64,000 nucleotides of DNA from Verrucomicrobiia bacterium (GCA_035605035.1 DATNHI010000106.1:849-64848), one strand, 5' to 3'; counted from the first letter of the stretch, positions 8,607-46,803 are shown. The notes: a model not told the origin generated them from the sequence alone. Translations and numbers: made by a program.

Positions 8607-8634
8607 TTCGCCGTAAAGACTTTGCCTGAAGATT

Positions 8635-9486: not shown

Positions 9487-9717
9487 CTAAGGACCTACTG
9501 GCCGAGCAAGTTTTATATCTTTCATCTCGTTTTCGTCTGGTGTCGCCACCACCAGATTCACATTACAAGTGAATTGCCTGACCGTTTTTGAACCTCCACT
9601 GACCGCTGTATAAGTGTATTTACCGTTCGAATAAGCTGCCACCCTTATGACATCACCATCAACCACATTTCCCTCGCGGGCATAGTCGGTGAAATGGAGA
9701 CAGTGATTGCTGGTCAT
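9487..9717 (-). CDS. small hypothetical protein in an AT-richer patch
   Basis: ORF only (MTSNHCLHFTDYAREGNVVDGDVIRVAAYSNGKYTYTAVSGG...). Visibly lower GC than surroundings. No family recognised. Confidence 0.3.
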   Translation of the reverse strand: MTSNHCLHFTDYAREGNVVDGDVIRVAAYSNGKYTYTAVSGGSKTVRQFTCNVNLVVATPDENEMKDIKLARPVGP

Positions 9718-9886
9718 GATTGGTATAGGGAAACAAACAGCCGTATGCTTAAAAGTCTCAGGGAATCTAACTTGGGATCGCAGATGATTCCCCATCCGGT
9801 GCGGGCCTAAACAGCGGCCTTGCACCCGCCGATGTCATAAGTGAAATTTTCTCGCCCGCGAATCCTTTTGCGGATTTAATCTCCCT

Positions 9887-17469: not shown

Positions 17470-19185
17470 TTACTGTTCGGCAGCTTGCGGCGGAATATTT
17501 GTATAACTGGCGTCTTCATGCACCCGATTGCCGGCAGGGTCAATGATTGTTGCGGTGACAAACACGAGCGTGTGCCGATTAAGAGAGTTTGTTTTGCTGC
17601 CATCAAGTTCTGCAAGCGCGGCGTCTGTTTGAACTTGATTGTCCTTCAGTCCAAAAACCAGCGTCTGATCGTCAAAAAGATTTACTGAATTCGTTGTTGA
17701 TTGCACACGAAATTGAGGCGACACCGTTGGCACGTCAATTTCCTGCCCGGCTGAATTATAAGCTGGTGTCGTGTTTGTAGATTGAGCGTAACCCAAAAAT
17801 TCAACCACCGAAGCGATGACAGGCAATTCGATGGTATAACTGTCAGGCAGCACGCGCGGTATCGCGTCGAGAACCGGTCCCGTTTCAACATTTTCAGTTT
17901 GAGGAACAATGCTGGAAGTGCCATTTGTTTCTTGAAGGCAAAAATTGGTCACGACAGAAATAATCTGTGTTGCCCGCATTTGAACTTGGCGTCCGCTGGT
18001 TAACACCACTTCTGGTTCGGCGAGAGTTTCAACATCATTGCGTGAGCGTAATTGCTTTAACGCAATACGGAAGTTTTCGTCGGTAAGAATACCGGCACTG
18101 GTCGAATCATACCAACCGGCAGATACGTCTTTCGGCATCGTCAGAAATCTTGCTTTGATGTGGATTTGCGGGATGGACGAATTGGTATCCGGACTAAAAC
18201 GCAAATGTGACGATGTTTGCAACGGGCGATTTTTTTCGGCGAGTTCGTCAAGCTGTCGCCGCAAGACGCCGGTTTCACCGCGTAATTTCAGCAATTCGTC
18301 AAATTGGTCTTCTGATAATTTTTTTGCATCGCCAACTTGAGCGAGACGATTTGAATAACTTTCGTTGTCCGTTTGCAATTGCGCGATTTGTTGGTTCAAC
18401 GACGTTTGCTGTTGTTGCAATGCGCCGATTTGTTTTTGCAATTGAATCGAGTAAATGCCGCTGCCAATTGCGGCGACGGCAAATCCAGCGATGAGAATTT
18501 TGTGAATCATAGTCATTCCGAGGGTTGTAGTTGTTAAGGCGACGGTGGTTGAAATTGTAGCGGCCAATCCAACCGGTGCGGATTGGACGGCGTTGGCGGA
18601 AATCAGAACCGCCAGTCCGCTCGCGCCAATCGTCACGTTACGTTTCGATAAAAATTCGCGCAGCCGCTCCACGGCGCGGCTGACGCGCTTTTGCGCGGCA
18701 TCGTCGCTCACGCCGAGCGCCCGGCCAACGGCGCGGAAATCCTGGTTCCGGAAAAAACGGAGCAACAAGGCTTCGCGGTCTTCTTCGCCGAGGCTGTCGA
18801 GCGCTTCATCCAGCGCTGGCCGGATTTGTTCCCAATCTGCGGAAGGTCCGGCATTGGAAAGAAATTGATTCATGGCTTGCCTTTCGTTTGCGAGCCGGCG
18901 CCGGTCATCGCGCAAATGCTTGAGCGCCGCATAGCGCGTGGCACGGTGTAGCCAGCCGGCCAGTGAAGCCTCCACCGCCAGCCGTTCGGCCACCGATCCT
19001 GCTTTGCGCGCCAGGTCCACAAAAACTTTTTGAGCAATGTCTGCCGCCAAATCGGCGGATTCCACCTGCCGCAAGGCGGCGGAATACACGAAGTCCGTGT
19101 GGCGCGTGACGATTTCGCGGAACGCGGCTTCGTCACCGCGCTCGGCGTAGTCGCGGAGCAGTTGGACGTCGGATTTGTCGCTCAC
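17470..19185 (-). CDS. ECF sigma domain / TM / coiled-coil / secretin-like C-terminal fusion protein (paralog A)
   Basis: N-terminal sigma r2/r4 (FREIVTRHTDFVYSAALRQV...LLLRFFRNQDFRAVGRALGVSDDAAQKRVSRAVERLREF). TM segment MIHKILIAGFAVAAIGSGIYSI. Q-rich coiled coil. C-terminus LAEPEVVLTSGRQVQMRATQ...GPVLDAIPRVLPDSYTIELPV...HTLVFVTATIIDPAGN resembles the secretin domain pattern. Confidence 0.75.
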   Translation of the reverse strand: MSDKSDVQLLRDYAERGDEAAFREIVTRHTDFVYSAALRQVESADLAADIAQKVFVDLARKAGSVAERLAVEASLAGWLHRATRYAALKHLRDDRRRLANERQAMNQFLSNAGPSADWEQIRPALDEALDSLGEEDREALLLRFFRNQDFRAVGRALGVSDDAAQKRVSRAVERLREFLSKRNVTIGASGLAVLISANAVQSAPVGLAATISTTVALTTTTLGMTMIHKILIAGFAVAAIGSGIYSIQLQKQIGALQQQQTSLNQQIAQLQTDNESYSNRLAQVGDAKKLSEDQFDELLKLRGETGVLRRQLDELAEKNRPLQTSSHLRFSPDTNSSIPQIHIKARFLTMPKDVSAGWYDSTSAGILTDENFRIALKQLRSRNDVETLAEPEVVLTSGRQVQMRATQIISVVTNFCLQETNGTSSIVPQTENVETGPVLDAIPRVLPDSYTIELPVIASVVEFLGYAQSTNTTPAYNSAGQEIDVPTVSPQFRVQSTTNSVNLFDDQTLVFGLKDNQVQTDAALAELDGSKTNSLNRHTLVFVTATIIDPAGNRVHEDASYTNIPPQAAEQ

Positions 19186-19362: not shown

Positions 19363-20988
19363 TTATTGACGTTTTGGAAAATCCCGGCCATCCACAACCG
19401 TCGGCGTCACAAACATCAAGAGGCTTTTTGGCCCAGCCGGCATATTTGTGGATCCAGGCATCCATCCATCGTCGGCCATTTCTGTTGCCATGACAACCGT
19501 CTGGCCGGGAGATAATGTCACTTGATTTGTTAATTGAATTGTCTGCACGTCCGGCTGCGAAGGATCGCCGGTCAATTGGTTTAATTTCGCTCCGAGATTC
19601 AAATTAAAAGTAGAGGAGTTGGTTGAAAAATAGGGCTTCACATCCAGGTTGACGCCGATATTCGTGTAATTCACGCTGGCATTCGCGTTTGTGCCCTCGG
19701 CGGAAAGCACGGGAAACGCCTTGGTCACGGAAATTTGAGCTTGTTCTCCATTGATGGTAACTATTCGCGGTGCGCTGATGACATTGGCGTCACTAGCCCC
19801 TTGCAACGCTTCATTGATGACCTTGAATTGCTGTCCGGTCAGTAAGCCGGTTTTTACACCGTGCGCGTCCGACTTCCACCCAACTCCAAGAACTTGCAAA
19901 TTTTCGGTGGGAAGAGAAACAAATTGTGCCCTCAAGAGAATCTGAATCTTTTCCACTTCCGGCACACTGTTCGTCTCCGTTTGCGCCGCGACCGGTAAAG
20001 CATTTTGCTGCCGCCTCAATTGCGTCATTTCGCCGCGCAATCTCAGAAGTTCCGTCTCGTTGGCGCGCAATTGTTTGTTTTCCTGTTGAAGTGACGCCAG
20101 TTGATTTGTCGCCTCGTCACGCTCCTGTTGCAATTGCTGGATTTGTTCGGTCAACGTCGTTTGTTTTTGACGCAGTGAATGAATTTGGTTTTGCAGTTGA
20201 AACGCATAAATGGTCGCACCAACAGCGGCGGCACCCAAGATGATGAAGAGTGTTTTTTGGATTGTGGTCATGGCGATGGCTTTGGTGGCGGCAATTACGG
20301 CTGAAGTGTGAACAGCGGCTCCGGCCAGAACAGCGGCGGTTGAAATGCTCGCAGCCAGCCCAACCGGCGCGGCTTGAACGGCGTTGGCGGAAATCAAAAC
20401 CGCGAGTCCGCTCGCGCCGATGGTCACGCTGCGTTTCGAGAAAAATTCGCGCAATCGTTCGACCGCTCGGCTGACGCGCTTTTGCGCGGCGCCTTCGGAC
20501 GCGCCCAAAACTTCACCGACTTCGCGCAGATTTTTGTTTTCAAAATAGCGGAGCAGAATCGCGCTGCGGTCAGCATCGTCAAGCGTGTCCATGGCTTCGT
20601 CGAGCAGCGGCTCGATTTCGAACCAGACAGGCGGGACGCCTGTGCCACTTTCGGTCGCATTCATATTGTTCATCTCCACGGCGATTTGCTCGCGCAATTG
20701 GCGGCGCGATTCCTTTCGGATTACGTCAATCGCGGTTCGGCGCGTGACGGCGTAAAGCCACGGCGTCAGGGAACTGACAGGCGGGACGCCCGTGCCACCA
20801 ATCTTGCCGGCGTCGCGCGCCAGATCGGCGAAGACGGATTGCGAAACTTCCTCAGCCAGTTGCGGTGAGCGGACTTGCCGCAACGCGGCGGAATGAACCA
20901 GATCCAGGTGCCGCCTGACAATTTCGGCGAAGGCGTCCTGTGAATTTTCCCGCGTGTATTGCCGTAGCAAATCCAAATCGCTTGTCAT
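19363..20988 (-). CDS. ECF sigma domain / TM / coiled-coil / secretin-like fusion protein (paralog B)
   Basis: Start chosen at MTSDLDLLRQYTRENSQDAFAEIVRRHLDLVHSAALRQV (ATG at 20988). The segment VSRAVERLREFFSKRSVTIGASGLAVLISANAVQAAPVGLAASIS is near identical to paralog A. C-terminus VISAPRIVTINGEQAQISVTKAFPV...IGVNLDVKPYF...LLMFVTPTVV is secretin-like. Confidence 0.75.
   Translation of the reverse strand: MTSDLDLLRQYTRENSQDAFAEIVRRHLDLVHSAALRQVRSPQLAEEVSQSVFADLARDAGKIGGTGVPPVSSLTPWLYAVTRRTAIDVIRKESRRQLREQIAVEMNNMNATESGTGVPPVWFEIEPLLDEAMDTLDDADRSAILLRYFENKNLREVGEVLGASEGAAQKRVSRAVERLREFFSKRSVTIGASGLAVLISANAVQAAPVGLAASISTAAVLAGAAVHTSAVIAATKAIAMTTIQKTLFIILGAAAVGATIYAFQLQNQIHSLRQKQTTLTEQIQQLQQERDEATNQLASLQQENKQLRANETELLRLRGEMTQLRRQQNALPVAAQTETNSVPEVEKIQILLRAQFVSLPTENLQVLGVGWKSDAHGVKTGLLTGQQFKVINEALQGASDANVISAPRIVTINGEQAQISVTKAFPVLSAEGTNANASVNYTNIGVNLDVKPYFSTNSSTFNLNLGAKLNQLTGDPSQPDVQTIQLTNQVTLSPGQTVVMATEMADDGWMPGSTNMPAGPKSLLMFVTPTVVDGRDFPKRQ
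20627..20793. repeat. two copies of the acaggcgggacgcc(t/c)gt hairpin inside paralog B (in frame)
   Basis: 20627-20643 and 20777-20793. Translated on the minus strand as ...SGTGVPPV... and ...GGTGVPPV.... Paralogs A and C lack them at the aligned positions. Confidence 0.8.
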
Positions 20989-21177
20989 GCTTTTGAAAGT
21001 ATATCGCCGCCGGACGACGAAATCCGACACAATTTCCCCGGTTGAATCCAGGCTCGACGGAGGCTTCCACCCTCCGTAGCAGAGCAACTGCGGAGGACGG
21101 GCGCCCCACCACTTTTCCCGGCGGCCGTGCGCAAGCATCTTTACTTTCGCCGTTTTGTCGCGCATTGTGGAGGCAGC

Positions 21178-21894
21178 ATGACACAACGTTATTTCAGGCT
21201 CTCGATTCTGGTCTTGGCCGGCGTGCTGGTGGCGCAAGTGGCGTCGTCCGCGGACACGACCAACCCGGCGCTGGCGAAGTCGGAGATTTTGGAAGGCAAC
21301 GTCGCCTATCTCCGCGTCAGCCACGTCGCCGCTGGCCTTTCGGATGAAATTGGCGTGGCCAACAGCGCGTTGACGACCACGAACAAAGTTGCCGGAACCG
21401 TCCTGGACCTGCGCTTTGCCGACGGTGACGATGCGGCGGCGGCGACCGCAACCGCAAATCGGCTGGCGGCAAAGAAGCTGCCCCTGGCAATTCTGGTAAA
21501 CGACGAGACGCGTGGCGCAGCGGTAACATTGGCAACGGCCTTGCGTGCGTCGCGGGCGGGGCTGATTTTCGGCAGCGTGCCGGCGGCGGTGAAACCGGAC
21601 ATTGCCGTCGCGGAAGACCCCGCCGACGAGAAAAGGTTTTTTGAAAATCCCTACGCGACGCCGGCCACCAACGCCGTCGCCGCGCTGTCCGGCACAAATG
21701 AATTTCTGCCCTGGGTGGACCATACCAGCGAAGCGGATCTGGTCCGTGCGAAAATCAAGGATGGCGACGAATTTGAAAATCCGCCGCCGCCGCACGCGGC
21801 GGGACCGCAAAAGCCGGTGATTCGCGACCCGGTCCTGGCGCGCGCGGTGGATTTGATCAAGGGACTTGCGATTGTCCGGGAATTCCATCCTTGA
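21178..21894 (+). CDS. secreted S41 (C-terminal processing peptidase)-like protein, probably non-catalytic
   Basis: Signal-like MTQRYFRLSILVLAGVLVAQVASSA. GNVAYLRVS...GTVLDLRFADGDD...PLAILVNDETRGAAVTLATAL aligns to the S41 core, but the SASASE serine motif is replaced. Confidence 0.5.
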   Translation: MTQRYFRLSILVLAGVLVAQVASSADTTNPALAKSEILEGNVAYLRVSHVAAGLSDEIGVANSALTTTNKVAGTVLDLRFADGDDAAAATATANRLAAKKLPLAILVNDETRGAAVTLATALRASRAGLIFGSVPAAVKPDIAVAEDPADEKRFFENPYATPATNAVAALSGTNEFLPWVDHTSEADLVRAKIKDGDEFENPPPPHAAGPQKPVIRDPVLARAVDLIKGLAIVREFHP

Positions 21895-21908
21895 TTTCGG
21901 GTTGACGA

Positions 21909-24122
21909 TTGGCGGTTCGCGACTCACCTTGGACTTTGCGCGGCATGAAAACCATTCTGTTCATTTGCACCGGCAACATCTGCCGCAGCCCGATGGCCGA
22001 GGGGCTTTTTCGCCGGGCGACCGACGGACGCGGGGAATACCGCGTGCTGTCGGCGGGCCTTGGCGCGGCGAACGACCAGCCGCCGACGCCGCATGCGGTG
22101 TCGGCCATGCGCGAACTGGGCATTGACATTACCGGCCACCGCAGCCGGATGCTGACGGCGGGCCTGGCGCAAGAGGCGGATTATATTTTCGGGATGACGC
22201 GCAGCCACGTGGACACGGTCGCGCTGTTGTTTCCGGAGGCGGAGGAAAAGACCTTTTTGCTGCGCGAATTCGACGAAACGCTGGAGCCATTTGAAAAGGA
22301 CATCAGCGACCCGATTGGCAGTTCCTACGAGGTGTATGTGAACTGCCGCAACCAGATCAAGCAGGGCATCGCGTCTCTTTTGAAATTTATGGAACAACAC
22401 GAAACCCCGTCGGCCGCGCCGGCGGCCAAAGCCGTGGCGACCACAAACTTTGCGCTTGGCGCCGACCACGGCGGCTACGAATTGAAAGAGGCGTTGAAAC
22501 AGCATCTGCAGCAACGCGGCTTGAACGTCACGGACTTCGGCGCGAAATCGAAGGAGCCGGCCGACGATTATCCCGACTTCGCCCAACCCGTGGCGCAGGC
22601 CGTGGCTGGCGGGCAGGCGGAGCTTGGCCTGCTCATCTGCACCAGCGGCGTGGGGATGAGCATGACGGCCAACAAAGTGCCGGGTGTCCGGGCCGCCCTG
22701 GTCACCGACGAACCGGCGGCGGCGTTGGCCCGGCGGCACAACGATGCCAATGTGCTCTGCCTCGCCGGCAAATCCACTTCCGTTGAGGCCGGCAAAAAGA
22801 TCCTCGACGCCTTCCTCGACGCGAAATTTGAAGGCGGCCGGCACGAACGCCGCGTCCACAAGATGGAGGCCCGGCCCGTGCCGCCGCAACTCCGTCTGCA
22901 GAGCGTGGATCCGGTCGTGGCCGCCGCCATCGAGCGCGAGCGGCGGCGCCAGCAGGAAAACATCGAGCTGATCGCCAGCGAAAATTTCGTCAGTCCGGCG
23001 GTCCTGGAAGCGCAGGGTTCCGTGCTCACGAACAAATATGCCGAGGGCCTGCCGAAGAAACGCTGGTACGGCGGCTGCGAGAACATTGACACCGTCGAAC
23101 AACTCGCCATTGACCGGGCAAAGCAGCTTTTTGGCGCTGAACACGTGAATGTCCAGCCGCACTCCGGCAGCCAGGCAAACATGGCGGTCTATTTTGCCGT
23201 GCTGAAACCCGGCGATAAAATGCTGACGATGGATTTGAGCCACGGCGGCCATCTGACGCACGGGAACAAGGTGAATTTCTCCGGCAAATTTTTTGAAATT
23301 GTCCACTACGGCGTGCGCAAGGACGACGAGCGGATTGACTACGACCAGCTCGCCGCCCTGGCGCGCGAGCACAAGCCGAGGATGATCACCGTCGGCGCCA
23401 GCGCCTATCCGCGCATCATTGATTTCAAACGCATGGGTGAAATCGCCCGCGAAGTCGGCGCGTATCTGCTGGCCGACATCGCGCACATCGCCGGCCTGGT
23501 GGCGGTGGGAATTCATCCCAGCCCGATTCCGCACGCGGATTTTGTGACGACCACGACGCACAAGACCCTGCGCGGCCCGCGCGGCGGATTGATTTTGTGC
23601 CGCGAAAAAAATGCAAAGGAGATTGATTCCACCGTTTTCCCCGGCATCCAGGGCGGGCCGCTGGAACACGTCATCGCGGCCAAGGCGGTTTGTTTCCAGG
23701 AAGCGTTGCAGCCGTCGTTCAAGGCGTATCAGGAACAGATTGTGAAAAACGCTAAGGCGCTGGCCGAAGGCATGAAGCGCAACGGCTACCGTATCGTTAG
23801 CGGCGGCACGGACAATCACCTGATGCTGGTGGACGTGGGTGTGAAAGACCTCACGGGCAAGGCCTGCCAGACGGCGCTCGACGAAGCCGGCATCACAGTG
23901 AACAAGAACACGATTCCGTTTGAGACGCGCTCACCGTTCCAGGCCAGCGGCGTCCGGCTGGGCACACCGGCCGTGACGACCCGCGGCATGAAGGAACCGG
24001 AAATGGCGGCCATTGCGGACATGATTTCCGAAGTGCTGCTGGACATCAAAAACATCGAGGCGGCGCACAAAGTCCGCGAACGCGTGCGCGAATTGACGGC
24101 GAAATTCCCGCTGCCTTATTGA
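21909..24122 (+). CDS. glyA: single ORF joining LMW protein-tyrosine-phosphatase, ribose-5-phosphate isomerase B and serine hydroxymethyltransferase
   Basis: aa 13-160 [17 protein letters not shown] (LMW-PTP P-loop). aa 178-320 [13 protein letters not shown]...[23 protein letters not shown]...[10 protein letters not shown] (RpiB). aa 328-737 IELIASENF...[10 protein letters not shown]...[13 protein letters not shown] (SHMT). No stop between domains. Likely start 21945. Confidence 0.85.
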
Positions 24123-37518: not shown

Positions 37519-38199
37519 ATGAAAGTGACTTACTACGGTCACGCTTGTTTTTCCGTGCAAGTAAAAGAGCGCACGCTGCTATTCGACCCGTTCATTTCCG
37601 GCAACCCGCTCGCCGATGGCATTGACGTAAAAAAGGTGCCGGCGGATTTCATTCTCGTTTCGCACGGCCACGATGACCATCTTGACGACGCGGTCGCAAT
37701 TGCCAAACGCACCCACGCGCTGGTGATTGCGAATTTTGAGGTCGCCAACTGGCTCGAACAACACGGCGCGCCGCGGGTGCACGCGCTGAATCATGGCGGC
37801 GGCTTTCAATTCGATTTTGGCCGCGCCAAATTCGTCAATGCCGTCCATTCCAGCACAATGCCCGATGGCGCCAATGGCGGAAACGCCGGCGGCTTTGTCG
37901 TCGAGAGCGCCGAGGCGAATTTTTATTACTCCGGCGACACCGCTTTGACGTTGGACATGAAACTCATTGGCGAATCCACAAAGTTGAAATTGGCCGTCCT
38001 GTGCATCGGCGACAATTTCACGATGGGGCCGGACGACGCGGTCAAAGCTGCCGGGTTTGTGCGCTGCGACGAAATCCTCGGTGTGCATTACGACACCTTC
38101 CCGCCCATCCGGATTGACCATGCCGCCGCGCAGGAAAAATTCAGGGCTGCCGGAAAGAACCTGCATCTGCTGCGCATCGGCGAGACGCGCGATTTCTAG
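37519..38199 (+). CDS. UPF0173-type metallo-beta-lactamase-fold hydrolase
   Basis: MKVTYYGHACFSVQ...LLFDPFISGNP...LVSHGHDDH. Confidence 0.75.
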   Translation: MKVTYYGHACFSVQVKERTLLFDPFISGNPLADGIDVKKVPADFILVSHGHDDHLDDAVAIAKRTHALVIANFEVANWLEQHGAPRVHALNHGGGFQFDFGRAKFVNAVHSSTMPDGANGGNAGGFVVESAEANFYYSGDTALTLDMKLIGESTKLKLAVLCIGDNFTMGPDDAVKAAGFVRCDEILGVHYDTFPPIRIDHAAAQEKFRAAGKNLHLLRIGETRDF

Positions 38200-39326
38200 T
38201 TATTCGGGTCCACGATGTGCAGGTCAATGCCCGGCGCGTGGTGGAGGAAAAATTGCAACACATTCGGGCGCGTGAATTGCCACCAGCGCCGTTCCGTCGT
38301 ACCCAGCACGACGAGACGGACGCTGTTTTCGCGGCAGAATTTCAGCAGGGCTTCACAAATATTCTCGCTTTCCAGAATGGTGACGCTGCCGCCCAGTTCC
38401 GTTGCCAACTGGACGTTTTGCATGAATTGTCGCTGCAAATCCGACGGAATGCGTATCGGGTCCTCCTTTTTACGGCGGACGTAAACGGCAATCCATTCGC
38501 GATTCAACCGCCCCGCGATGCGCGACGCCGTCCGCAGGAGTTTCGCCGTCGTGACGGGATTGGTGCTGATGAACACCGCGACTTTCTCGCCCACCTCGGC
38601 CGGCAACGCCGTGCCGGCGCGCGGTCGGCGGTCAAGCGCGGCGGCGGTTTCGCGCAACGCCAGCTCGCGCAGGGTGTTCAAATTGTTCTCTGTGAAAAAA
38701 TTCTCGAGCGCGGCCGCGGCGCGGTCGGCGGGGTAAATTTTCCCCAGCTTCAACCGCTCGCGCAATTCCTCGGCCGTCAGGTCAATGTTCACAATCTGGT
38801 CGGCCTCCAGCACAAAACGGTCGGGCACACGCTCGCGCACGTCCACGCCCGTCGCCCGCAGCACCGTGTCGTGCAGGCTTTCCAGATGCTGGATGTTCAT
38901 GGCCGTGATGACATTGATGCTCGCCAGCAGCAGGTCATGCACTTCGAGGTAACGTTTGGGATGTTGCGAGCCGGCAACATTTGTGAACGGTAATTCGTCA
39001 ATGATGCAAACCGTCGGATACCGTTTGAAGATGGCGTCCACGTCGAGCACCTCAACCGTGGTGTTGCCGTGCGGCACTTTTTTGCGGGGAATAATTTCCA
39101 GACCTTCGAGCAACGGCTCCGTTTCCTTGCGCCCGTGCGTTTCAATCCAGCCGATGACCACGTCCACGCCCGCTTTTTTGAGGCGATGCGCCTCCTCCAG
39201 CATCGCGTAGGTTTTGCCGACCCCCGCGGCGTGCCCGAGATAAATCTTCAACTTTCCCAGCCGGCTCTTTTCGATGAGCCGCAGGAAATCTTCCGGCTTC
39301 AAGCGGGGCGCGGCGGGCGGTTCCAC
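38196..39326 (-). CDS. kdpD: short KdpD: KdpD N-terminal sensor domain plus USP-like domain, no TM or histidine-kinase part
   Basis: GKLKIYLGHAAGVGKTYAMLEEAHRLKKAGVDVVIGWIETHGRKET...CIIDELPFTN. C-terminal USP-like KVAVFISTNP...RLVVLG. Ends at 376 aa. Confidence 0.8.
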   Translation of the reverse strand: MEPPAAPRLKPEDFLRLIEKSRLGKLKIYLGHAAGVGKTYAMLEEAHRLKKAGVDVVIGWIETHGRKETEPLLEGLEIIPRKKVPHGNTTVEVLDVDAIFKRYPTVCIIDELPFTNVAGSQHPKRYLEVHDLLLASINVITAMNIQHLESLHDTVLRATGVDVRERVPDRFVLEADQIVNIDLTAEELRERLKLGKIYPADRAAAALENFFTENNLNTLRELALRETAAALDRRPRAGTALPAEVGEKVAVFISTNPVTTAKLLRTASRIAGRLNREWIAVYVRRKKEDPIRIPSDLQRQFMQNVQLATELGGSVTILESENICEALLKFCRENSVRLVVLGTTERRWWQFTRPNVLQFFLHHAPGIDLHIVDPNN

Positions 39327-39338
39327 GCCGCCAAGAAA

Positions 39339-39476
39339 CTATTTTTGCGGCAACTGGTCGAGCGCGAAGTTGAAACCTCTCCGTGCAACGGCAAGATCCT
39401 CCCGCGATGGCAACTGTATCGCCCGCGAAACCGGCAGCCCTCTCTCTGTCACTTGGCTACCAAGTGACCGACCCAT
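39339..39476 (-). pseudogene. ghost kdpC 3' end, 12 nt upstream of kdpD
   Basis: Minus-strand reading ...QVTERGLPVSRAIQLPSREDLAVARRGFNFALDQLPQK* versus real KdpC ...QVPRVARARGLSEARV...RDLGVFGEPRVNIMTLNFALDSLAGK*. Core gtcgagcgcgaagttgaa versus gtcaagcgcgaagttcaa (16/18). Confidence 0.75.
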
Positions 39477-40559
39477 TTAATGTTTTTTAAGTCTTAACCA
39501 TCGCGTGAACAGACAGCCCAAACCCATCAAACAGAGTAGCAGGACTGACCAGTAAGCAAGTCTTGTGTATTTATGAGGCGGTGGGAAAGCGATCACTTTT
39601 TTTGCGAGATGCAGGGTTTCCCTTTCACCTTGCAGAGCCAAACTGTGATATGCACCCACCGAAATAGTTATCACGTTTGTCAAACCGGATGGTATTGCAA
39701 TGGTTCCACCCCAGCCTCTGCCCCATGCAACTAAAGTCCCATCCGACTTGAGGGCTAGACGATGCTGTTCTCCAGCGGCGATTGACACAACATTCGTCAA
39801 ATCCGCTGGGGGTGTGACCTCGCCAAAATTTACATCATGTCCCCAACCCACTACGCGACCGTCAGATTTAAGCGCCAAGCAGTAATGAATTCCGGCTGCG
39901 ATTGCCACCACATTGGTCAAATCGGCTGGAACATTTGTCTGTCCGTATGAGTTATCACCCCAAACGACGACTGTGCCGTTCGACTTCAATGCCATGCTGT
40001 GTTCACCGCCACCGGCGATTGCCACCACATTCGCCAAATCCGGCGGCACTCTGGTTAGATTGGCATTTCCGGGCAATCTGCCTCCCCAGCATACAACTGT
40101 GCCATCCGATTTTAACGCAAGGCTGTGATAATAACCCGCTGCTATGGCGATTACGTTAGTCAGGTTTGCTGGCACTTCAATTTCATCATCACCATCGTAG
40201 CCCCAACCTATAACTGTGCCATCGTCCTTCAGTGCAAGACAGTGCCATTCTCCGGCGGCAATGGCTGTGACGTTCGACAAACCTTCTGGCGTTTTTACCG
40301 GAAAAATGCCACCACCGCCAAGACAAGCTCCCCACGTAATAACCGTCCCATCATTTTTTAACGCCAAGTTGTGACGTAAACCCGCTGCAATGGCGACGAC
40401 GTTGGTTAAGCCCACCGGCACACTTAACTCGCCGAATCCGGCATTCTGTCCCCAAGCCATGATCTGGTTGGCCGGATGAACGAGCGTCTGCATGCTCAAA
40501 TAGAAAATAACGGACAAACAGAACCTGCCAGCACATCGCTGGACTGAAACAGTTTTCAC
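39477..40559 (-). CDS. RCC1-repeat beta-propeller protein with signal peptide and C-terminal TM anchor
   Basis: Repeats of the type NVVAIAAG..H.LALKSDGTVV.WG. C-terminal WSVLLLCLMGLGCLFTRW. AT-richer than flanks. Confidence 0.8.
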   Translation of the reverse strand: MKTVSVQRCAGRFCLSVIFYLSMQTLVHPANQIMAWGQNAGFGELSVPVGLTNVVAIAAGLRHNLALKNDGTVITWGACLGGGGIFPVKTPEGLSNVTAIAAGEWHCLALKDDGTVIGWGYDGDDEIEVPANLTNVIAIAAGYYHSLALKSDGTVVCWGGRLPGNANLTRVPPDLANVVAIAGGGEHSMALKSNGTVVVWGDNSYGQTNVPADLTNVVAIAAGIHYCLALKSDGRVVGWGHDVNFGEVTPPADLTNVVSIAAGEQHRLALKSDGTLVAWGRGWGGTIAIPSGLTNVITISVGAYHSLALQGERETLHLAKKVIAFPPPHKYTRLAYWSVLLLCLMGLGCLFTRWLRLKKH

Positions 40560-40588
40560 CGTGAAATGTTAATCCTGCTGTTGCCGGT

Positions 40589-41893
40589 TTGGGAATCCCA
40601 ATTTTCGTCTGGCTTTGGCCTTTCTTGAAGTTTAAACATCGAAGACAGATGAAAATCATTCCATTGGCGGCAACCCTTTTCTGCGGATTATTTTTCATTG
40701 ATGAGAATGCACACGCACAAACCAACTTGGAATGTATTGGGCACGTCAACGATTCACCATGGGGGGCATTTGATGTGGCGGTTGCCGGGCATTATGTGTT
40801 CCTTGCAAACGGCAGTGATGGTCTCCGAATCTACGATGTATCAACCCCAACAAATCCCATCTGCGTCGGACATGCGAAGGACGGAGGGGTTGGCGCAAGC
40901 GCAATGGGAGTAGCATTATTCGGTGATTATGCCTACATCGCCAACAGCAACGACGGAATGCGTATCTACGATGTTTCCGATCCAACTCACCCGATTAACG
41001 TAGGACGCAGCCCTGAAATCGCCTCCCCAGCAGCTTCATTTGGCATAGCGATTTCTGGTGTGCAACAGCACAGGGCTTTTGCACCCATCCGGTCATGGCT
41101 GTTCGGAAAGCGTAAGTCAGGAGCACGGTATGCCTTCCTAGCAAACTACAATGATGGACTGCGAATCTACGATGTTTCCAATCCCGCCAAACCAAAGCGT
41201 ATTGGCCGTGTGAACGACGGCGGCACAGCTCTTTATGCGGCTGTGTCTGGAAAATACGTATTTCTGGCGAACGACTATGACGGGCTACGGGTATATGACG
41301 TTTCTAATCCCGCCAGTCCGACCAACGTCGCAAGGGTCAAAGATATGGGTTATCCGTGGGGAGTGGCCGTCGCTGGGAAATACGCCTATGTTGCAGACAA
41401 TTTTTACGGCTTTTCAATTTTTGATATTTCTGACGTGACACATCCGGTCGGCGTGGGACATATCAATGACAGTCCACCGCCTCTGTCATTTATTGAAGCT
41501 CATTCGCATACGACCAATAGCAAAACTCACATTGACGGCTCCGCATACGGCATAGCCGTTGCGGGTAATCATGCGTATCTTGCTAATTTTGGCGATGGGG
41601 TTCGGGTTTATGATATTTCCAATCCGACGAACCCAATTAACATCGCGCACACGGCCACAAACTATCAGGGATTCTCAAAGAGAATCGCCGTATCGAGGGG
41701 CTTCGCTTTTGTTGCTAACGCAAATGACGGACTCCGAATTTACAAAGTGTGGGATGACACTCCAACCGCGTCGGAATTTCCTGTTTACACTTTCGCAGTC
41801 ATCGCCCTGAGTTTAATTTTGATTGTGGTCGCAATATCAATCTGGCGATTCAAAGTCAGTTCAGCAAAGCACGAAGCCGACAATTCTTCATAA
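40589..41893 (+). CDS. LVIVD-repeat beta-propeller protein with signal peptide and C-terminal TM anchor
   Basis: Repeats YVFLANGSDGLRIYDVSTPTNP / YAYIANSNDGMRIYDVSDPTHP and similar. Likely start 40649 (MKIIPLAATLFCGLFF). C-terminal FAVIALSLILIVVAISIW. Confidence 0.8.
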   Translation: MGIPIFVWLWPFLKFKHRRQMKIIPLAATLFCGLFFIDENAHAQTNLECIGHVNDSPWGAFDVAVAGHYVFLANGSDGLRIYDVSTPTNPICVGHAKDGGVGASAMGVALFGDYAYIANSNDGMRIYDVSDPTHPINVGRSPEIASPAASFGIAISGVQQHRAFAPIRSWLFGKRKSGARYAFLANYNDGLRIYDVSNPAKPKRIGRVNDGGTALYAAVSGKYVFLANDYDGLRVYDVSNPASPTNVARVKDMGYPWGVAVAGKYAYVADNFYGFSIFDISDVTHPVGVGHINDSPPPLSFIEAHSHTTNSKTHIDGSAYGIAVAGNHAYLANFGDGVRVYDISNPTNPINIAHTATNYQGFSKRIAVSRGFAFVANANDGLRIYKVWDDTPTASEFPVYTFAVIALSLILIVVAISIWRFKVSSAKHEADNSS

Positions 41894-42097
41894 ACATGAG
41901 GGGGTAGCCTTCGCTTCCGGCGAGTTCCTTTCACCGCTTTCCCAAGCGGTTCAAATCTCCCCGGAGCGGAGAAGAAATTTGTTTTGTGGAACGTTTTCCC
42001 CAAGGTGGCTCGGTTTGAGCCAGACGGGCCACCTCGCAACCTTGGGCTGTTTTCTTCTGCTCCGTTGGAGCATCAGGCGGGACGCCCGTGCTACTTT

Positions 42098-42760
42098 TCA
42101 TTTGCCAGCCAGACTGTCAAGCGCGAAGTTCAATGTCATGATGTTCACGCGCGGCTCGCCGAAAACGCCGAGGTCGCGGCCATTCGTGTTTTGTTGAACG
42201 AGTTCGCGGACGCGTGCTTCCGACAGGCCGCGCGCCCTGGCCACGCGCGGAACCTGCAACTCCGCGTTGGCCACGCTGATGTGCGGGTCAAGGCCGCTGC
42301 CGGAAGCGGTTGCGGCATCGGCGGGAACGATGGCATTGGTTGCGAGGCCGTTGTCGGAACGGCAGGTGGCAATGTTCTGCGTGACGTTGGCGACCAGATT
42401 GGATGAGGTCGGGCCGAGATTGCTGCCGCCGGAATGCGTCGCGTCAAAATTGTTCACGCTCACCGCAGATGTTGGATCGCCTGCGCTCGCCGCCGACGGA
42501 CGCGGATGAAAATATTGCGCGCCGGTGAAATTTTGCGCAAGCATTGCCGAGCCGCGCACCCCGCCGGAACGGTCATGCAGCAAACTGCCGTTGGCCTGGT
42601 TCGGGAACAGCAATTGCGACACTCCAAAAACAACGAGTGGATAGAGACCGCACAAAATGACGGCGAAAAAAAGTGTCGCCACCAGCGACCGGCCGAATTC
42701 AGTCAAAATGGTTTTCATAAATTTTTTGCAGGAGACGACGTGAGGAGTCTCATTTTTCAA
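42098..42760 (-). CDS. kdpC: K+-transporting ATPase subunit C
   Basis: Typical KdpC: TM helix then ...GSNLGPTS...SGSGLDPHIS...NFALD. Likely start 42718 (MKTILTEF). Confidence 0.9.
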   Translation of the reverse strand: MKNETPHVVSCKKFMKTILTEFGRSLVATLFFAVILCGLYPLVVFGVSQLLFPNQANGSLLHDRSGGVRGSAMLAQNFTGAQYFHPRPSAASAGDPTSAVSVNNFDATHSGGSNLGPTSSNLVANVTQNIATCRSDNGLATNAIVPADAATASGSGLDPHISVANAELQVPRVARARGLSEARVRELVQQNTNGRDLGVFGEPRVNIMTLNFALDSLAGK

Positions 42761-42799: not shown

Positions 42800-44812
42800 T
42801 CATGCCAGATGCAGACCCGCGACGATCAGGTCAATGAATTTGATGCCGATGAACGGCAGGATGACGCCCCAGAGGCCGTAAATCAGCAGGTTGATGCGCA
42901 GGATTTGCACCGCGCCGAGCGGGCGGAACTTCACGCCGCGCAGCGCCAGCGGAATCAGTGCGATGATGATGAGCGCGTTGAAAATCACGGCGCTCAAAAT
43001 CGCGCTGTCCGGGCTGTGCAATTTCATGACGTTCAACGGCGCAATGACCGGAAAGGTCACCATCAGCATCGCCGGGATGATGGCGAAGTATTTCGCCACG
43101 TCGTTGGCGATGCTGAAGGTCGTCAGTGCGCCGCGCGTGATGAGCAATTGCTTCCCGATTTCGATGATTTCGAGCAGCTTCGTCGGATTCGAGTCCAGGT
43201 CCACCATGTTGCCGGCTTCCTTGGCGGCTTGCGTGCCGGTGTTCATGGCCACGCCGACATCGGCCTGCGCGAGCGCGGGCGCGTCGTTCGTGCCGTCGCC
43301 AATCATCGCAATCATCCGGCCGCCCTGTTGTTCCTGGCGGATCAACGCCAGTTTGTCCTCCGGTCTCGCCTCGGCGAGAAAATCGTCCACGCCCGCCTCC
43401 TGCGCGATGGCGGCGGCGGTGAGCTTGTTGTCGCCGGTAATCATCACGGTGCGGATGCCCATCGCGCGAAAGCGTTTGAAGCGGTCGGACAGCCCGCCCT
43501 TGACGATGTCTTTCAAATGAATCACGCCGAGCACGCGCTGACGCGTCGCGACGACGAGCGGCGTGCCGCCGGAAAGAGAAATGGTTTCAACCATTTCTTC
43601 AATTTCCGCCGGCAGTTTCCCGCCAACGAACTGGCGGATTGAATTGGCCGCGCCTTTGCGAATTTGTTTGCCTTCGAGATTCACGCCGCTCATGCGCGTT
43701 TGCGCGGTGAATGGCACAAATTGCGCGTTTGGCAACTCGTGAATCGTCCGCGCGCGGATGCCGAATTGTTTGGCGAGCACGACGATGCTGCGGCCCTCGG
43801 GCGTTTCGTCCGCGAGCGACGCAAGTTGTGCGGCGTCGGCCAATTCCCGTTCGGTCACGCCGGGCGCGGGCAGAAAGGCGACGGCCTGCCGGTTGCCGAG
43901 CGTGATAGTGCCCGTCTTATCGAGCAGCAGAACATCCACGTCGCCAGCGGCCTCGACCGCGCGTCCACTCATCGCCAGCACATTGCGCTGGAGCAGACGG
44001 TCCATGCCGGCGATGCCGATGGCGCTCAATAAACCGCCGATGGTCGTCGGAATCAAACAAACCAGTAGCGCGATGAGCACGGCGTTGGAGAAAATCGTCC
44101 CGGAGTAAATGCCGAACGGCTTCAGCGTCACAACCGCGAGCAAAAAGACGACCGTGAGCGCGGCGAGCAAAATCGTGAGCGCGATTTCGTTCGGTGTCTT
44201 CTGACGGCTCGCGCCTTCGACGAGGGAAATCATGCGGTCGAGAAAGCCTTCGCCGGGATTGGCGGTGATGCGGATTCTGATTTCGTCGGAGAGCACGCGC
44301 GTGCCGCCGGTGACGGCGCTGCGGTCGCCGCCGGCTTCGCGGATGACCGGCGCGGATTCGCCGGTAATCGCGGATTCATCTACCGTCGCCGCGCCGAGAA
44401 CAATTTCGCCATCGGCGGGAATGATTTCCATGGCATGCACGACCACGATATCGCCTTTGCGCAGCGAATCGGCATCCACGACTTCAATCCGGTCGCCGGA
44501 AATTTTATTGGCGCTGGTTCGCGTGCGGGTGGCGCGCAGCGCCTTGGCCTGCGCCTTGCCGCGGCCCTCGGCGACGGCTTCGGCGAAATTCGCGAACAGC
44601 ACGGTGAACCAGAGCCAGAGTGCGATTTGGGCGACAAACAGGGTCTGGCCGGGCGAGCGAAAGGCGTCCACGGTGCTGATGGCCGCGCCGACCAGCGTGA
44701 CGAACATGACGGGATTTTTCACCATCAGCCGCGGGTTCAGTTTTTTGAACGCGTCGCCGATGGCGGGCCAGAGAATTTTGGAATCAAAGACGGAAACGGC
44801 TTTCGTTTGCAT
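42800..44812 (-). CDS. kdpB: K+-transporting P-type ATPase subunit B
   Basis: DKTGTIT phosphorylation motif, [16 protein letters not shown]. Confidence 0.95.
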
Positions 44813-44815: not shown

Positions 44816-46615
44816 TTAAAACAGGGTTCCTTTCAGCATCAGAAAATGTTCGACAATCGGGCCGAGCGTGAGCGCGGGCAAAAAAGTCAACGCACCGACG
44901 AGAATCACTGTGCCGACGAGCAGCACGACGAAGGTGATGCCGGTCACCGGAAACGTGCCGGCGCTGGCGGGAACGATTTTTTTGCGCGCCAGCGACCCGG
45001 CGAGCGCGAGCAGCGGCACGATCATGCCGAACCGGCCGAGCAGCATGTCAAAGCCGAGCGTCGTGTCGTACCACGGCGTGTTGGCGTTGAGGCCGGCGAA
45101 GGCGCTGCCGTTGTTGCCCGCGCCGGAGGTGTAGGCGTAGAGCATTTCGCTCAAGCCGTGCGGGCCGTTGTTGTTCAAGCCGGCCTTGCCCCAATCGCTT
45201 ACCGACGCCCAGGCCGTGAACCCGAGAATGATGAACGCGAGAATGACGAACGCCAGCAGCGTCATCTTCACGTCGTAGGCCTCGATCTTTTTGCCGAGAT
45301 ATTCCGGCGTGCGCCCGACCATCAGCCCGGCGATGAACACGGCGAGGATGACAAAAATCAACATGCCGTAAAGCCCCGCGCCGACGCCGCCGAAAATCAC
45401 CTCACCGGTCTGGATGTTGAACATCGGCACCAGCCCGCCGAGCGGCGTGAAGGAATCGTGCATGGAATTGACCGCGCCGCAGGAGGCGTCGGTCGTCACC
45501 GTGGCGAACAGCGCGGAATCGAAGATGCCGAAGCGGACTTCCTTGCCTTCCATGTTACCGTCGGCGACGGCGACGCCGAGTTGCTGATGAATCGGATTGC
45601 CGCGCGCCTCTGCCCACGAGCAAACGAGGACGCCAGCGAGAAACATGACGAACATCGCCGACCAGACCGCCCAGCCGTGTTTTTGATTTTTCGTTTCGCG
45701 GCCGAGGTGATACGTCAGCGCGCTGCCGATGCAGAGGAGCGCCAGCATCTGGAAAAAGTTCGAGAGCGGCGTGGGATTTTCAAATGGATGCGCGGCGTTG
45801 GCGTTCGTGTAACCGCCGCCGTTGGTGCCGAGCATCTTAATGGCCATCTGCGACGCCATCGGGCCTTGCACGATGGTCTGCGTGTCGAGCGTCTGGTTAA
45901 CCATGACTGGATTGCCCTTGGCGTCCACGACCGGTTTGCCGTTCGCGTCGGTTTTTTGGACAGAAACGGTTTGCGGCTCGATGAGCTTGGCGACGGTGTA
46001 AGGTTTGAAATTCTGAATCATGCCCTGCGACACGAAGAACAGCGCCAGCACGAGGCAAATCGGCAGGAGCAGATAATAAATGATGCGCGTGAGGTCCACC
46101 CAGAAGTTGCCGATGGTCTGCGCCGTGTGCCGCGCGATGCCGCGCACGAGCGCGCCGGCGATGGCGATGCCGACGGCGGCGGAAAAAAAGTTTTGGCTGG
46201 CCAGCGCGACCATTTGCGAGAAATACGACATCGTGGATTCGCCGCCGTAGCTCTGCCAGTTGGTGTTCGTGGTAAAGCTGACGGCGGTGTTGAACGCGAG
46301 ATGTTGAGCCAGCGCGCCGAGTTTTTGTGGATTGAGCGGCAGAAATTGCTGCAACCGCAGAATGGCGTAGGTGAAAAGACAGCTCACGAGGCTGAACAGC
46401 AGCATCGCAAACGCGTATTGCTTCCAGCCGTGTTCCTTCGCCGGATCCACGCGCAAGACGCGGTAGGTGAATTTTTCGAACGGGCGCAAAACCGGGTCGA
46501 GCCAGGTGCGACCGTTGGGATTGAGCACGCGGTTGATATACAAACCGAGTGGCTTGGTGACGAGCACGAGCGCGCCGATGTAAAGCGCGAGCTCCAACCA
46601 TTGATGGGCGTTCAT
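44816..46615 (-). CDS. kdpA: K+-transporting ATPase subunit A
   Basis: MNAHQWLELALYIGALVLVTKPLGLYI...TNTNWQSYGGE...LGTNGGG. Confidence 0.95.
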   Translation of the reverse strand: MNAHQWLELALYIGALVLVTKPLGLYINRVLNPNGRTWLDPVLRPFEKFTYRVLRVDPAKEHGWKQYAFAMLLFSLVSCLFTYAILRLQQFLPLNPQKLGALAQHLAFNTAVSFTTNTNWQSYGGESTMSYFSQMVALASQNFFSAAVGIAIAGALVRGIARHTAQTIGNFWVDLTRIIYYLLLPICLVLALFFVSQGMIQNFKPYTVAKLIEPQTVSVQKTDANGKPVVDAKGNPVMVNQTLDTQTIVQGPMASQMAIKMLGTNGGGYTNANAAHPFENPTPLSNFFQMLALLCIGSALTYHLGRETKNQKHGWAVWSAMFVMFLAGVLVCSWAEARGNPIHQQLGVAVADGNMEGKEVRFGIFDSALFATVTTDASCGAVNSMHDSFTPLGGLVPMFNIQTGEVIFGGVGAGLYGMLIFVILAVFIAGLMVGRTPEYLGKKIEAYDVKMTLLAFVILAFIILGFTAWASVSDWGKAGLNNNGPHGLSEMLYAYTSGAGNNGSAFAGLNANTPWYDTTLGFDMLLGRFGMIVPLLALAGSLARKKIVPASAGTFPVTGITFVVLLVGTVILVGALTFLPALTLGPIVEHFLMLKGTLF

Positions 46616-46624: not shown

Positions 46625-46708
46625 CTAAAATTTTTCCGGTTTAAGCATGGCGACAATGAGATAAACACAAAGCGCCACGGAAATAATTCCAAGGATGAGA
46701 TTTTCCAT
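46625..46708 (-). CDS. kdpF: K+-transporting ATPase subunit F (27 aa)
   Basis: Not in ORF track (too short). Hand translation MENLILGIISVALCVYLIVAMLKPEKF* has the KdpF-type hydrophobic helix and a PEKF end. Sits 9 nt upstream of kdpA. Confidence 0.8.
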   Translation of the reverse strand: MENLILGIISVALCVYLIVAMLKPEKF

Positions 46709-46719
46709 AAATTCTTTGG

Positions 46720-46803
46720 TCAGAGCTTTTGGCAACCGACGACATACAGCAAAAAAGCCATAAAAGCGCCACAAACCAATCCGATATAGATTGCGTCCAA
46801 CAT
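46720..46803 (-). CDS. second 27-aa hydrophobic peptide immediately upstream of kdpF
   Basis: MLDAIYIGLVCGAFMAFLLYVVGCQKL*, between the riboswitch candidate and kdpF. ORF only. Confidence 0.3.
   Translation of the reverse strand: MLDAIYIGLVCGAFMAFLLYVVGCQKL

Follow-up and report, generated by a model that had tools for sequence, protein, structure and literature searches.

A conserved terminus of kdpC immediately upstream of short kdpD and a variable gene slot within the kdp operon of Limisphaerales

Why should the end of one gene stand a second time in an operon, detached from the rest of that gene and placed directly before the next one? The question is raised by a kdp operon in a stretch of 64,000 nucleotides (hereafter the window) from a Verrucomicrobium of peat soil, whose relatives belong to the Limisphaerales. 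Its kdp operon genes, including kdpC and kdpD, are all intact as judged by Pfam (Table 1). The original prediction described an operon divided by an AT-richer insertion. It listed a 45-codon ORF (39339-39476, minus strand) ending ...RRGFNFALDQLPQK and a stop, a gap of 12 nt from there to kdpD, the end of the true kdpC with a core of 16 identical nucleotides in 18, and two propeller genes between, and every one of these features is present. From comparison with related genomes, we think it fairly probable that the tail of kdpC overlaps a cis-element of kdpD, and that accessory genes gained a long-lived slot when this overlap was duplicated.

Table 1. Coordinates of the kdp genes, the cargo and the junction elements in the window
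Feature	Position	Strand	Evidence
Short kdpD	38196..39326	-	Pfam KdpD E=2e-85 + weak Usp match; 376 aa
Relic of compact kdpC-kdpD junction	39327..39374	-	orthologous to kdpC termini of 21 compact loci and relics of 10 other split loci
Non-kdpC-derived part of 45-codon ORF	39375..39476	-	KdpC homology absent; ~39375-39400 common to L002
RCC1-repeat beta-propeller gene, one half of cargo module	39477..40559	-	Pfam RCC1_2 E=4e-51
Divergent intergenic region of cargo module	40560..40648	.	gene coordinates; GC 0.48
LVIVD-repeat beta-propeller gene, other half of cargo module	40649..41893	+	Pfam LVIVD E=1.8e-51, 7 repeats
Junction DNA between convergent kdpC and LVIVD gene ends	41894..42097	.	terminator-like site
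kdpC, intact, split-type tail ...LNFALDSLAGK and stop	42098..42760	-	Pfam KdpC E=3e-68, profile positions 3-181/182
Core repeat copy inside kdpC end, TTGAACTTCGCGCTTGAC	42116..42133	-	direct repeat, 16/18 identical to 39357-39374
kdpB, P-type ATPase subunit	42800..44812	-	Pfam E1-E2_ATPase + Hydrolase; TGES motif in translation
kdpA	44816..46615	-	Pfam KdpA E=1e-234
kdpF	46625..46774	-	Pfam Potass_KdpF E=3.7e-10, residues 27-49; real start probably inside ORF

The part of the ORF that derives from kdpC is much shorter than the 45 codons originally claimed. A DNA profile of the kdpC 3′ ends of relatives (nhmmer) matched only its last 33 nt (E=5e-8; profile positions 208-240 only), and a protein profile (hmmsearch) matched only residues 35-45 (E=4e-5), with E=0.1 for the N-terminal 34 residues. 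Homology of the supposed ghost to KdpC is found by clade-specific profiles for 11 codons; it is not found for the other 34, nor was KdpC (PF02669) detected anywhere in the ORF by a Pfam-A scan at E<=1. A likeness seen by eye between the N-terminal part (…VTERGLPVSRAIQL…EDLAV…) and KdpC (…VARARGLSEARVREL…RDLGV…) is unsupported by either type of profile and was rejected. Descent from kdpC is limited to 39327-39374. This relic consists of 11 former kdpC codons (FNFALDQLPQK), TAG at 39339-39341 and the spacer at 39327-39338, about 48 bases in all, and is followed by the GTG start codon of kdpD at 39326. Within it, the blocks AACTTCGCGCTCGACC (39356-39371) and AAATAGTTTC are without variation.

The counterpart of the relic is found in compact operons. 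In 21 related Limisphaerales genomes, kdpC ends in ...LNFALDQLxQK and TAG, and kdpD begins after a further 12-13 nt. Since exactly the relic sequence forms the genuine end of kdpC in these relatives, at an equal distance from kdpD, its resemblance to KdpC exceeds chance, and their matching geometry supports an ancestral compact junction. The proposal of an ancestrally contiguous kdpFABC-kdpD is thus supported by genomes in which kdpC and kdpD are uninterrupted. Short kdpC-kdpD spacing is also seen in other phyla.

Further, the split state is not private to the window, nor a recent, one-off insertion as had been supposed. It occurs at 11 species-level loci (the window, L002, L004, L007, L009, L012, L018, L022, L023, L033 and L040), and in all 11 the relic lies immediately upstream of kdpD, with a left boundary sharp to about 3 nt regardless of the upstream neighbour. 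L018 and L040 retain it though kdpFABC is absent within 7-10 kb. The closest relic, that of L002, has about 30 further nt in common with the window, yet its upstream neighbour is a radical-SAM gene. When metagenomes were scanned for the junction pattern specific to these two loci (GGTTTC plus core), the sole match lay in an unrelated gene and is due to chance. In a sister kdpD clade (L019, L020, L029, L030, L038 and L039) the relic is absent and a different, pyrimidine-rich leader stands in its place, which indicates that the element is replaceable.

Insertion of cargo right behind the kdpC stop, as first envisaged, leaves the second terminus unexplained. Plain insertion cannot yield one, so the junction must have been duplicated, and the kdpC tail of the window now reads SLAGK. 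Among intact split-type kdpC genes, six end in xLAGK and that of L007 in GLAGR, with mostly synonymous variation; such closely similar tails suggest that the split is old. The kdpC of L022 is without the xLAGK tail and reads on into the relic. NJ trees of KdpD, KdpA, KdpB, KdpC and RpoD show the split state scattered, with compact and split loci coexisting among close relatives, and they fit equally a split that arose once and was later lost or exchanged and one that arose several times.

The relic is also far better conserved than its surroundings. When split loci are compared in pairs, the relic is identical at 0.815 of its positions and its 17-nt core at 0.897, against 0.578-0.60 at 4-fold sites in the adjacent kdpD, 0.279 in the 45 nt immediately upstream of the relic, and 0.31-0.49 in the 45 nt that precede other genes. 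In compact loci, third positions of the N-F-A-L-D-Q-L codons are conserved at 1.0 in six of seven cases and at 0.95 in one, whereas the preceding 30 codons average 0.70. CTCGACC and TAG are without variation in all kdpD-proximal copies (32/32), while only 2/8 displaced kdpC copies keep these Leu-Asp codons unaltered (Fisher p=7e-6), and the next codon is CAG in 21/21 compact loci and CCG in 8/11 relics (p=1.6e-5), although these tests overstate independence because the loci are phylogenetically related. The window's own kdpC copy of the core carries a synonymous CTC>CTT change. The shift from CAG to CCG in relics fits a release from coding constraint.

Could the relic nevertheless be a neutral ghost, a decaying pseudogene fragment of kdpC left when the RCC1/LVIVD genes recently and privately split the operon? 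The cargo is compositionally foreign, compact relatives exist, and the fragment has no coding role, all of which would be expected. However, the same relic and boundary occur in ten other species-level genomes with different cargo, and the xLAGK tail common to intact split-type kdpC genes makes the split older than the window cargo. Identity of 82-90%, compared with 58-60% at neutral sites and 28% immediately upstream, points to a conserved element rather than a decaying one. Recent horizontal spread of a relic-kdpD unit could mimic such conservation, but 4-fold identity of 0.60 in the first 60 kdpD codons speaks against it. We regard this explanation as very improbable and largely refuted.

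The slot between kdpC and the relic ranges from 0.26 kb to >7 kb among split loci, and its cargo is different at every one. In the window it is occupied by a low-GC module, 2.4 kb long, whose two genes encode membrane-anchored beta-propeller proteins, one RCC1-like and one LVIVD. The RCC1-repeat gene is oriented like kdpD, and promoters of the module presumably lie in the divergent region between the two genes. Both proteins carry a C-terminal TM helix, and the LVIVD protein a signal peptide as well. A protein identical to the LVIVD protein is annotated in a Verrucomicrobiae MAG, with orthologues at 63-78% identity, and the module (39493-41875) shares 78% nucleotide identity with contigs L080-L082, where it stands in non-kdp contexts. 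Exact-sequence look-ups of KdpD, KdpC (two alternative starts) and LVIVD (long start) gave no match. No other 2.5 kb of the window is as poor in GC as the cargo interval (0.50, compared with a window mean of 0.579 and an sd of 0.024), whose GC3 of 0.48 contrasts with 0.68-0.82 in neighbouring genes; the module is compositionally foreign, and the AT-richer insertion of the original prediction is confirmed. A terminator scan found a small GC hairpin and adjoining T-run (42077-42099, + strand) in the junction DNA between the converging ends of kdpC and the LVIVD gene, and this junction DNA has a homologue in none of the related loci. Other slots contain restriction-modification systems, an NsnA/GmrSD-like and HEPN pair, an IS1595 transposase (L018) or REP-like repeats, the latter being the only sequence common to some slots. 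Slots of 260-526 nt are devoid of genes.

Such a pattern invites comparison with site-specific integration, in which AACTTCGCGCTCGAC would be an att-like core, incoming elements would bring the xLAGK tail and displace the native one, and the relic would be an attR joined to the native tail. The cargo is flanked by imperfect direct repeats, the breakpoint is nearly equal in 11 loci with unrelated cargo, much of it defence genes, L018 has its transposase, and the split state is scattered over the trees. Nonetheless, no recombinase gene was found in the window cargo, which comprises RCC1 and LVIVD only, or among the scanned cargo ORFs of L004, L033 and L018. The sequences after the xLAGK stop, where the end of an element is expected, are unrelated among loci, and no conserved arms were found there. 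The gene-free small slots, the synonymous variation in the xLAGK codons, which resembles that of an old, vertically inherited gene end, and the imperfect core (an 18-nt repeat of coding origin in the window) also count against integration, and conservation of the relic reaches 30 nt past the repeated core, to the kdpD start. We consider an integration hotspot unlikely. The lack of a recombinase in the scanned cargo, the 16/18 core and the unconserved arms do not fit an integrase-mediated island with att duplication, and the lack of terminal inverted repeats flanking 39375-42097 and of a transposase in the window cargo does not fit insertion of an IS or transposon.

Two known situations come close to this arrangement. 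The icd gene of E. coli is reportedly a target of e14 and phage 21, which integrate at its 3′ end, supply a substitute for that end and leave the displaced icd fragment behind. At kdp as at icd, a gene 3′ end is present twice and flanks foreign DNA, the upstream gene is intact with a slightly changed tail, and the displaced terminus lies beyond. Unlike at icd, the kdp cargo examined has no integrase (L018 has only its IS1595 transposase), element ends are unconserved, the duplicated homology is only 15-18 nt, and the cargo is a different gene set in each genome, not one element. In further contrast with icd, the displaced kdpC terminus is under strong purifying selection because it adjoins kdpD. 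Hotspots of accessory genes and defence islands, in turn, occupy fixed positions between conserved core genes and hold varying accessory genes. The kdp slot is similar in that restriction-modification systems, an NsnA/GmrSD-like gene and HEPN occur at a fixed position, with cargo GC below that of the flanks. It differs from general hotspots in its small size and in sitting inside an operon, where coding and downstream signals overlap; for that reason it is available only in genomes with the duplicated 33-48-nt overlap.

What the relic does is less readily read from its sequence. A sigma-70 consensus scan, for -35 and -10 hexamers 16-18 nt apart, found no site in or near 39327-39374, which is weak evidence as the scan does not cover Verrucomicrobia promoter types. 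No Shine-Dalgarno sequence was found in the relic, and an Rfam scan of 38900-42400 at E<=1 gave no match. Conserved RNA structure is unsupported: RNAalifold on 32 sequences gave -0.94 kcal/mol with 0 compensatory pairs, and a single-sequence fold of the element gave z=-0.49. A hairpin across the stop codon (GCCGCAAA…TTTGCGGC) is perfect in a few loci but lacks covariation across loci, and it was dismissed. An in-frame KdpC-KdpD fusion by read-through is ruled out by the 13-nt spacer of several loci.

Translation might instead be relayed from RCC1 through the ORF, acting as a uORF, to kdpD, with the ORF obliged to stop at TAG 12 nt before kdpD for reinitiation. TAG is indeed present in 32/32 loci with a spacer of 12-13 nt, the ATG of the window ORF abuts the RCC1 TAA (TAAATG), and kdpC itself stops at that TAG in compact loci. 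But in L004, L007, L009, L012, L018 and L033 the relic frame is closed 12-20 codons upstream and a proper start is absent, several loci have a 13-nt spacer, and conservation is at the level of nucleotides, third positions included, not of frame or peptide. This makes a relay quite unlikely. That the ORF is a real small protein gene is scarcely credible. An ATG start and 45 open codons speak for it, but its N-terminal 34 residues are unconserved even in the closest relative, it has no Pfam family match, its frame is interrupted in other split loci, and it spans a 12-bp hairpin (39445-39471) that an inverted-repeat search placed directly after the RCC1 stop.

We infer the function of the element, and the route by which duplication and cargo arrived, from these patterns. 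The relic has probably been kept in 11 related species because kdpD needs it for expression. In the compact operon, the last ~11 codons of kdpC, TAG and the 12-nt spacer would overlie a nucleotide-level signal needed by kdpD. The likeliest candidate for this signal is the translation-initiation region of kdpD, a promoter or operator being a further possibility. As coding sequence and signal coincide, kdpC and kdpD could be separated only by duplicating the overlap, which would have happened long ago. The kdpC copy would then have been free to evolve at the DNA level, giving rise to the GC-richer xLAGK tail, while the kdpD copy would have lost its coding role and retained its nucleotides. The space between the copies would have become permissive, a slot where accessory DNA is gained and lost. 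Compact and split loci could coexist through deletion between the 15-18-nt repeats, through homologous exchange via the flanking kdp genes, or through both.

In E. coli, kdpDE is transcribed from a weak promoter of its own, located in the end of kdpC or close to it, and also by read-through from kdpFABC. The Limisphaerales operons would be alike in placing signals of the downstream regulator in the kdpC end, and kdpD likewise lies within a few nucleotides of kdpC. They differ in the Verrucomicrobium host and in a short KdpD composed of KdpD-N and Usp, and no recognisable sigma-70 promoter was found, a promoter being one candidate role only. The window kdpD, at 81-93% identity to relatives, has the architecture of the short-KdpD class, namely a KdpD N-terminal domain (Pfam residues 24-229) and Usp (residues 250-365, E=4e-4, under the gathering score), and the TM, GAF and histidine-kinase (DHp-CA) parts are absent from it by Pfam. 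Short KdpD of exactly this type has been described as an atypical serine kinase acting on its own, which phosphorylates Ser162 of KdpB and so inhibits KdpFABC (PMC11018627), and translation of the window KdpB contains the TGES motif. That work does not treat cis-signals of kdpD or split operons.

A bolder extension is possible but doubtful. The 48-nt element might be of dual use in compact operons, as the KdpC tail and as the control site of the stand-alone KdpD serine kinase, with duplication ending the conflict and creating a landing pad. Signs of conflict between coding and signal would, under dual use, be the recurrent CAG>CCG in relics and the GC-enrichment of the freed kdpC tail. Such a landing pad would be heritable, lie inside an operon, and repeatedly capture defence and surface-protein genes. 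In a stronger version, the invariant block AACTTCnCnCTCGACC could conceivably be a putative binding site for a trans-acting regulator or recombinase.

The split kdp junction does not reveal a new molecular machine. It does identify a non-coding element, short and under strong conservation, that precedes the gene for short (kinase-only) KdpD, and the 11 split and 21 compact genomes provide a comparative series for testing it. For annotation, the 45-codon ORF should not be entered as a gene, nor the relic labelled a pseudogene. More generally, the locus is a clear case from nature of operon architecture constrained by signals that overlap, in which the last codons of one gene are proposed to double as the expression signal of the next. 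A tiny duplication would free both functions and give the operon a lasting slot for genes gained by horizontal transfer.

All the literal features behind the original prediction are present: a 45-codon open reading frame (MGRSLGSQVTERGLPVSRAIQLPSREDLAVARRGFNFALDQLPQK) whose TAG stop lies 12 nt (39327-39338) before the kdpD GTG, a kdpC product ending in NIMTLNFALDSLAGK, and an 18-nt repeat identical at 16 positions. The view of this frame as a kdpC remnant holds for its last 11 codons, while the other 34 lack KdpC homology in DNA and protein profiles. Aligned locally as DNA to the window's own kdpC, it yields no more than an 18-34-nt core, and its match to a DNA profile built from the kdpC 3′ ends of 26 relatives is confined to the final 33 nt (E=5e-8). 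A kdpC protein profile is restricted to residues 35-45, with no significant match to the first 34, and Pfam KdpC does not match the frame. The true relic therefore comprises only the stop, the spacer and 11 codons that once belonged to kdpC, and the evidence does not support a real protein of 45 aa. The non-homologous part holds a hairpin directly after the stop of the RCC1-repeat gene, which could end or stabilise the transcript of that cargo gene.

Features of the kdp locus in the window and in relatives (L numbers)
Locus	Feature	Position	Strand	Remarks
Window	kdpF	46625-46774	minus	
Window	kdpA	44816-46615	minus	
Window	kdpB	42800-44812	minus	
Window	kdpC	42098-42760	minus	Pfam KdpC E=3e-68, full-length profile coverage
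Window	18-nt repeat	39357-39374 / 42116-42133		
Window	LVIVD-repeat gene	40649-41893	plus	best start; between kdpC and kdpD
Window	RCC1-repeat gene	39477-40559	minus	between kdpC and kdpD
Window	hairpin	39445-39471	minus	12 bp, 3-nt loop; inside 45-codon frame
Window	45-codon frame	39339-39476	minus	TAG at 39339-39341
Window	relic	39327-39374	minus	
Window	short kdpD	38196-39326	minus	376 aa; Pfam KdpD E=2e-85, weak Usp match; kinase part absent (Pfam)
Window	sigma-70/Secretin frames	17470-19185; 19363-21927	minus	571 aa; 854 aa
Window	RCC1-like/LVIVD module	39493-41875		
L080; L081; L082	RCC1-like/LVIVD module	240-2619; 912-3158; 915-3161		
L004	NsnA / PD-T4-2-like GmrSD_N protein, HEPN	4143-5752		PADLOC E=2e-66 (GmrSD_N)
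L033	D12 type II methyltransferase, SacI-like endonuclease	7830-9939		
L018	type II R-M: N4/N6 methyltransferase, MvaI/BcnI endonuclease	6884-9317		adjoining IS1595 transposase
L022	collapsed junction	~6857-6905		
L004; L009	REP/MITE-like repeats	~8447-8542; ~9870-9955		abut relic
L007; L012	REP/MITE-like repeats	~9890-9955; ~9890-9954		abut relic

A KdpD protein scan, taking one genome per species, recovered about 40 MAGs of Verrucomicrobiae/Limisphaerales, most of them of peat or bog origin, whose KdpD is 81-93% identical to that of the window. In 21 of these, kdpC ends in LNFALDQL(P/A/S/T/G)(Q/R)K and TAG, kdpD starts 12-13 nt further on, and the junction is exactly the window relic in sequence and geometry. 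Together with the short kdpC-kdpD spacing known from other phyla, these uninterrupted junctions make the predicted compact kdpFABC-kdpD ancestor well supported.

Ten further loci keep the relic against kdpD with kdpC displaced or absent. The intervening slot measures 260 nt (L012), 317 nt (L007), 441 nt (L009), 526 nt (L023), 5.5 kb (L033) or 7.4 kb (L004); kdpFABC is absent within 10 kb of the relic in L018 and within 7.4 kb in L040, and L002 is a short contig in which kdpC is either displaced or absent. The kdpC frame of L022 continues across a collapsed duplication (LNFALDELAR-HFALDPPPQK, then stop) and so gains 11 residues; relative to the split junction, this one is either intermediate or collapsed. 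Homology to the compact junction starts abruptly at (TG)AACTTC, within ~3 nt, in all 10 loci; what had been proposed as a simple insertion behind the kdpC stop is instead a junction duplication. Intact displaced kdpC tails are near-identical (G/S/A/N-LAGK in six, GLAGR in L007) and their codon variation is largely synonymous, which argues that the split is old and not an invention of the window's genome. The L002 relic is closest to that of the window, sharing GGTTTC and ~30 further nt upstream, yet its upstream gene is radical-SAM where the window has RCC1, so there has been cargo turnover after the split arose. A sister clade of short kdpD genes (L019, L020, L029, L030, L038, L039) has neither a kdpC relic nor kdpFABC within 10 kb; a pyrimidine-rich leader (e.g. 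CCTTTTTTCCTTTTGCC), unlike the relic, precedes its GTG start.

This recurrence across loci contradicts a neutral ghost left by a recent private insertion, as does the conservation of the relic. Among the 11 split loci, pairwise identity is 0.815 over the 45-nt relic and 0.897 over its 17-nt core; it is 0.578 at 4-fold degenerate sites of the whole kdpD, 0.60 at those of its first 60 codons, and 0.279 in the 45 nt directly upstream of the relic. The 45 nt upstream of rpoD, an MBL-fold gene, kdpA and kdpB give 0.31-0.49. CTCGACC and TAG are invariant in an alignment of 32 kdpD-proximal sequences. At compact loci, third positions of the N-F-A-L-D-Q-L codons have a majority fraction of 1.0 in six of seven cases and 0.95 in the other, and the preceding 30 kdpC codons average 0.70. 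Displaced kdpC copies carry synonymous changes at the CTCGACC codons (CTT, CTG, TTG; GAT): the Leu-Asp codons are unchanged in 2/8 displaced copies versus 32/32 kdpD-proximal ones (p=7e-6, with independence overstated by relatedness). This difference argues that the nucleotide constraint travels with kdpD rather than kdpC. Directly after GAC, 21/21 compact loci have CAG, while CCG stands there in 8/11 relics (p=1.6e-5, independence again overstated by relatedness), a pattern suggesting that the constraint of coding for KdpC was lifted. Judged by these sequence comparisons, the 'ghost' appears to be a functional element conserved by selection.

Cargo differs in every split locus. As predicted for an AT-richer insertion, the window cargo is foreign in composition: the interval has a GC of 0.50, the lowest of any 2.5 kb in the window (mean 0.579, sd 0.024), and a GC3 of 0.48-0.49 versus 0.68-0.82 in kdpA-D, rpoD and other neighbours. 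The second lowest-GC stretch (~0.52) holds two adjacent frames, each encoding ECF-type sigma-70 regions 2 and 4 together with a Secretin domain at the C terminus (Pfam), which is an unusual architecture. The window's RCC1-like/LVIVD pair is a conserved, divergent 2.4-kb module found in different contexts on metagenome contigs; L080-L082 carry it amid unrelated genes, with no kdp gene, at ~78% nucleotide identity (module range 75-78%). Each window product carries a signal-like segment at its N terminus and a hydrophobic helix at its C terminus, the signal peptide and TM helix of the module's proteins, and PADLOC assigns neither to a family. Defence genes occur in relatives' slots (L018, L033, L004), alongside DUF2971 in L033 and an S26 signal peptidase and others in L004. 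Short slots contain REP/MITE-like repeats, common to L004/L009 and to L007/L012 (e.g. CTTTGCGTCTTTGCGCCTTTGCGTTGAAT and AATCCGTGTTCATCCGTGCCCATCCGTGGTTGAAAA at the relic); translated, these resemble LCVFASLR and IRVHPWLK. Site-specific integration at an att-type hotspot, as with e14 and phage 21 at icd, would account for the common breakpoint, but no recombinase came up in the cargo frames scanned, conserved element ends are lacking, and conservation beyond the repeated core is left unexplained. No integrase, transposase or terminal inverted repeats flank the window cargo.

NJ trees of KdpD, KdpA, KdpB, KdpC and RpoD do not separate split from compact loci; the two are intermixed. Compact L001, L005 and L006 nest beside split loci with common slot-boundary sequences, which are held by the split pairs window/L002, L007/L012 and L004/L009. 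For this pattern one of three processes is needed: recurrent deletion between the 15-18-nt repeats, which would restore the compact sequence precisely; allelic exchange, with the flanking kdp genes as the sites of homologous recombination; or repeated origins of the split. CCG, common in relics, never occurs in compact loci. Either this counts against simple recurrent deletion, or it means that Pro is selected against in the KdpC tail.

The best-supported reading is that kdpD expression depends on a cis-element with which the kdpC end overlaps. Separation of the two genes would then be possible only if the overlap were duplicated, after which each copy would have specialised and the gap between them become a tolerated slot for accessory DNA. 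KdpD proteins of the short class are described as serine kinases that act alone and inhibit KdpFABC post-translationally (PMC11018627), which explains why kdpD can do without co-transcription with kdpFABC. The upstream gene is divergent in L004 and L002, and a promoter for kdpD itself must therefore lie within the slot there. A termination-reinitiation relay onto kdpD fits in part, with the invariant TAG and the window's TAAATG junction with RCC1, but the frame of the relic is closed nearby in most split loci. The candidate element contains no Shine-Dalgarno sequence, sigma-70 consensus promoter or conserved RNA structure, and has no Rfam family. Its ~45-nt span to the start codon and its A/U- and pyrimidine-rich AAATAGTTTCTTT would suit a translation-initiation region with little structure, though the element may instead be a promoter or operator of non-canonical type. 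The kdpC-kdpD junction of these bacteria would be a variation on three known themes: hotspots for accessory genes, insertions at which a gene end is duplicated, and signals that lie within the gene upstream.
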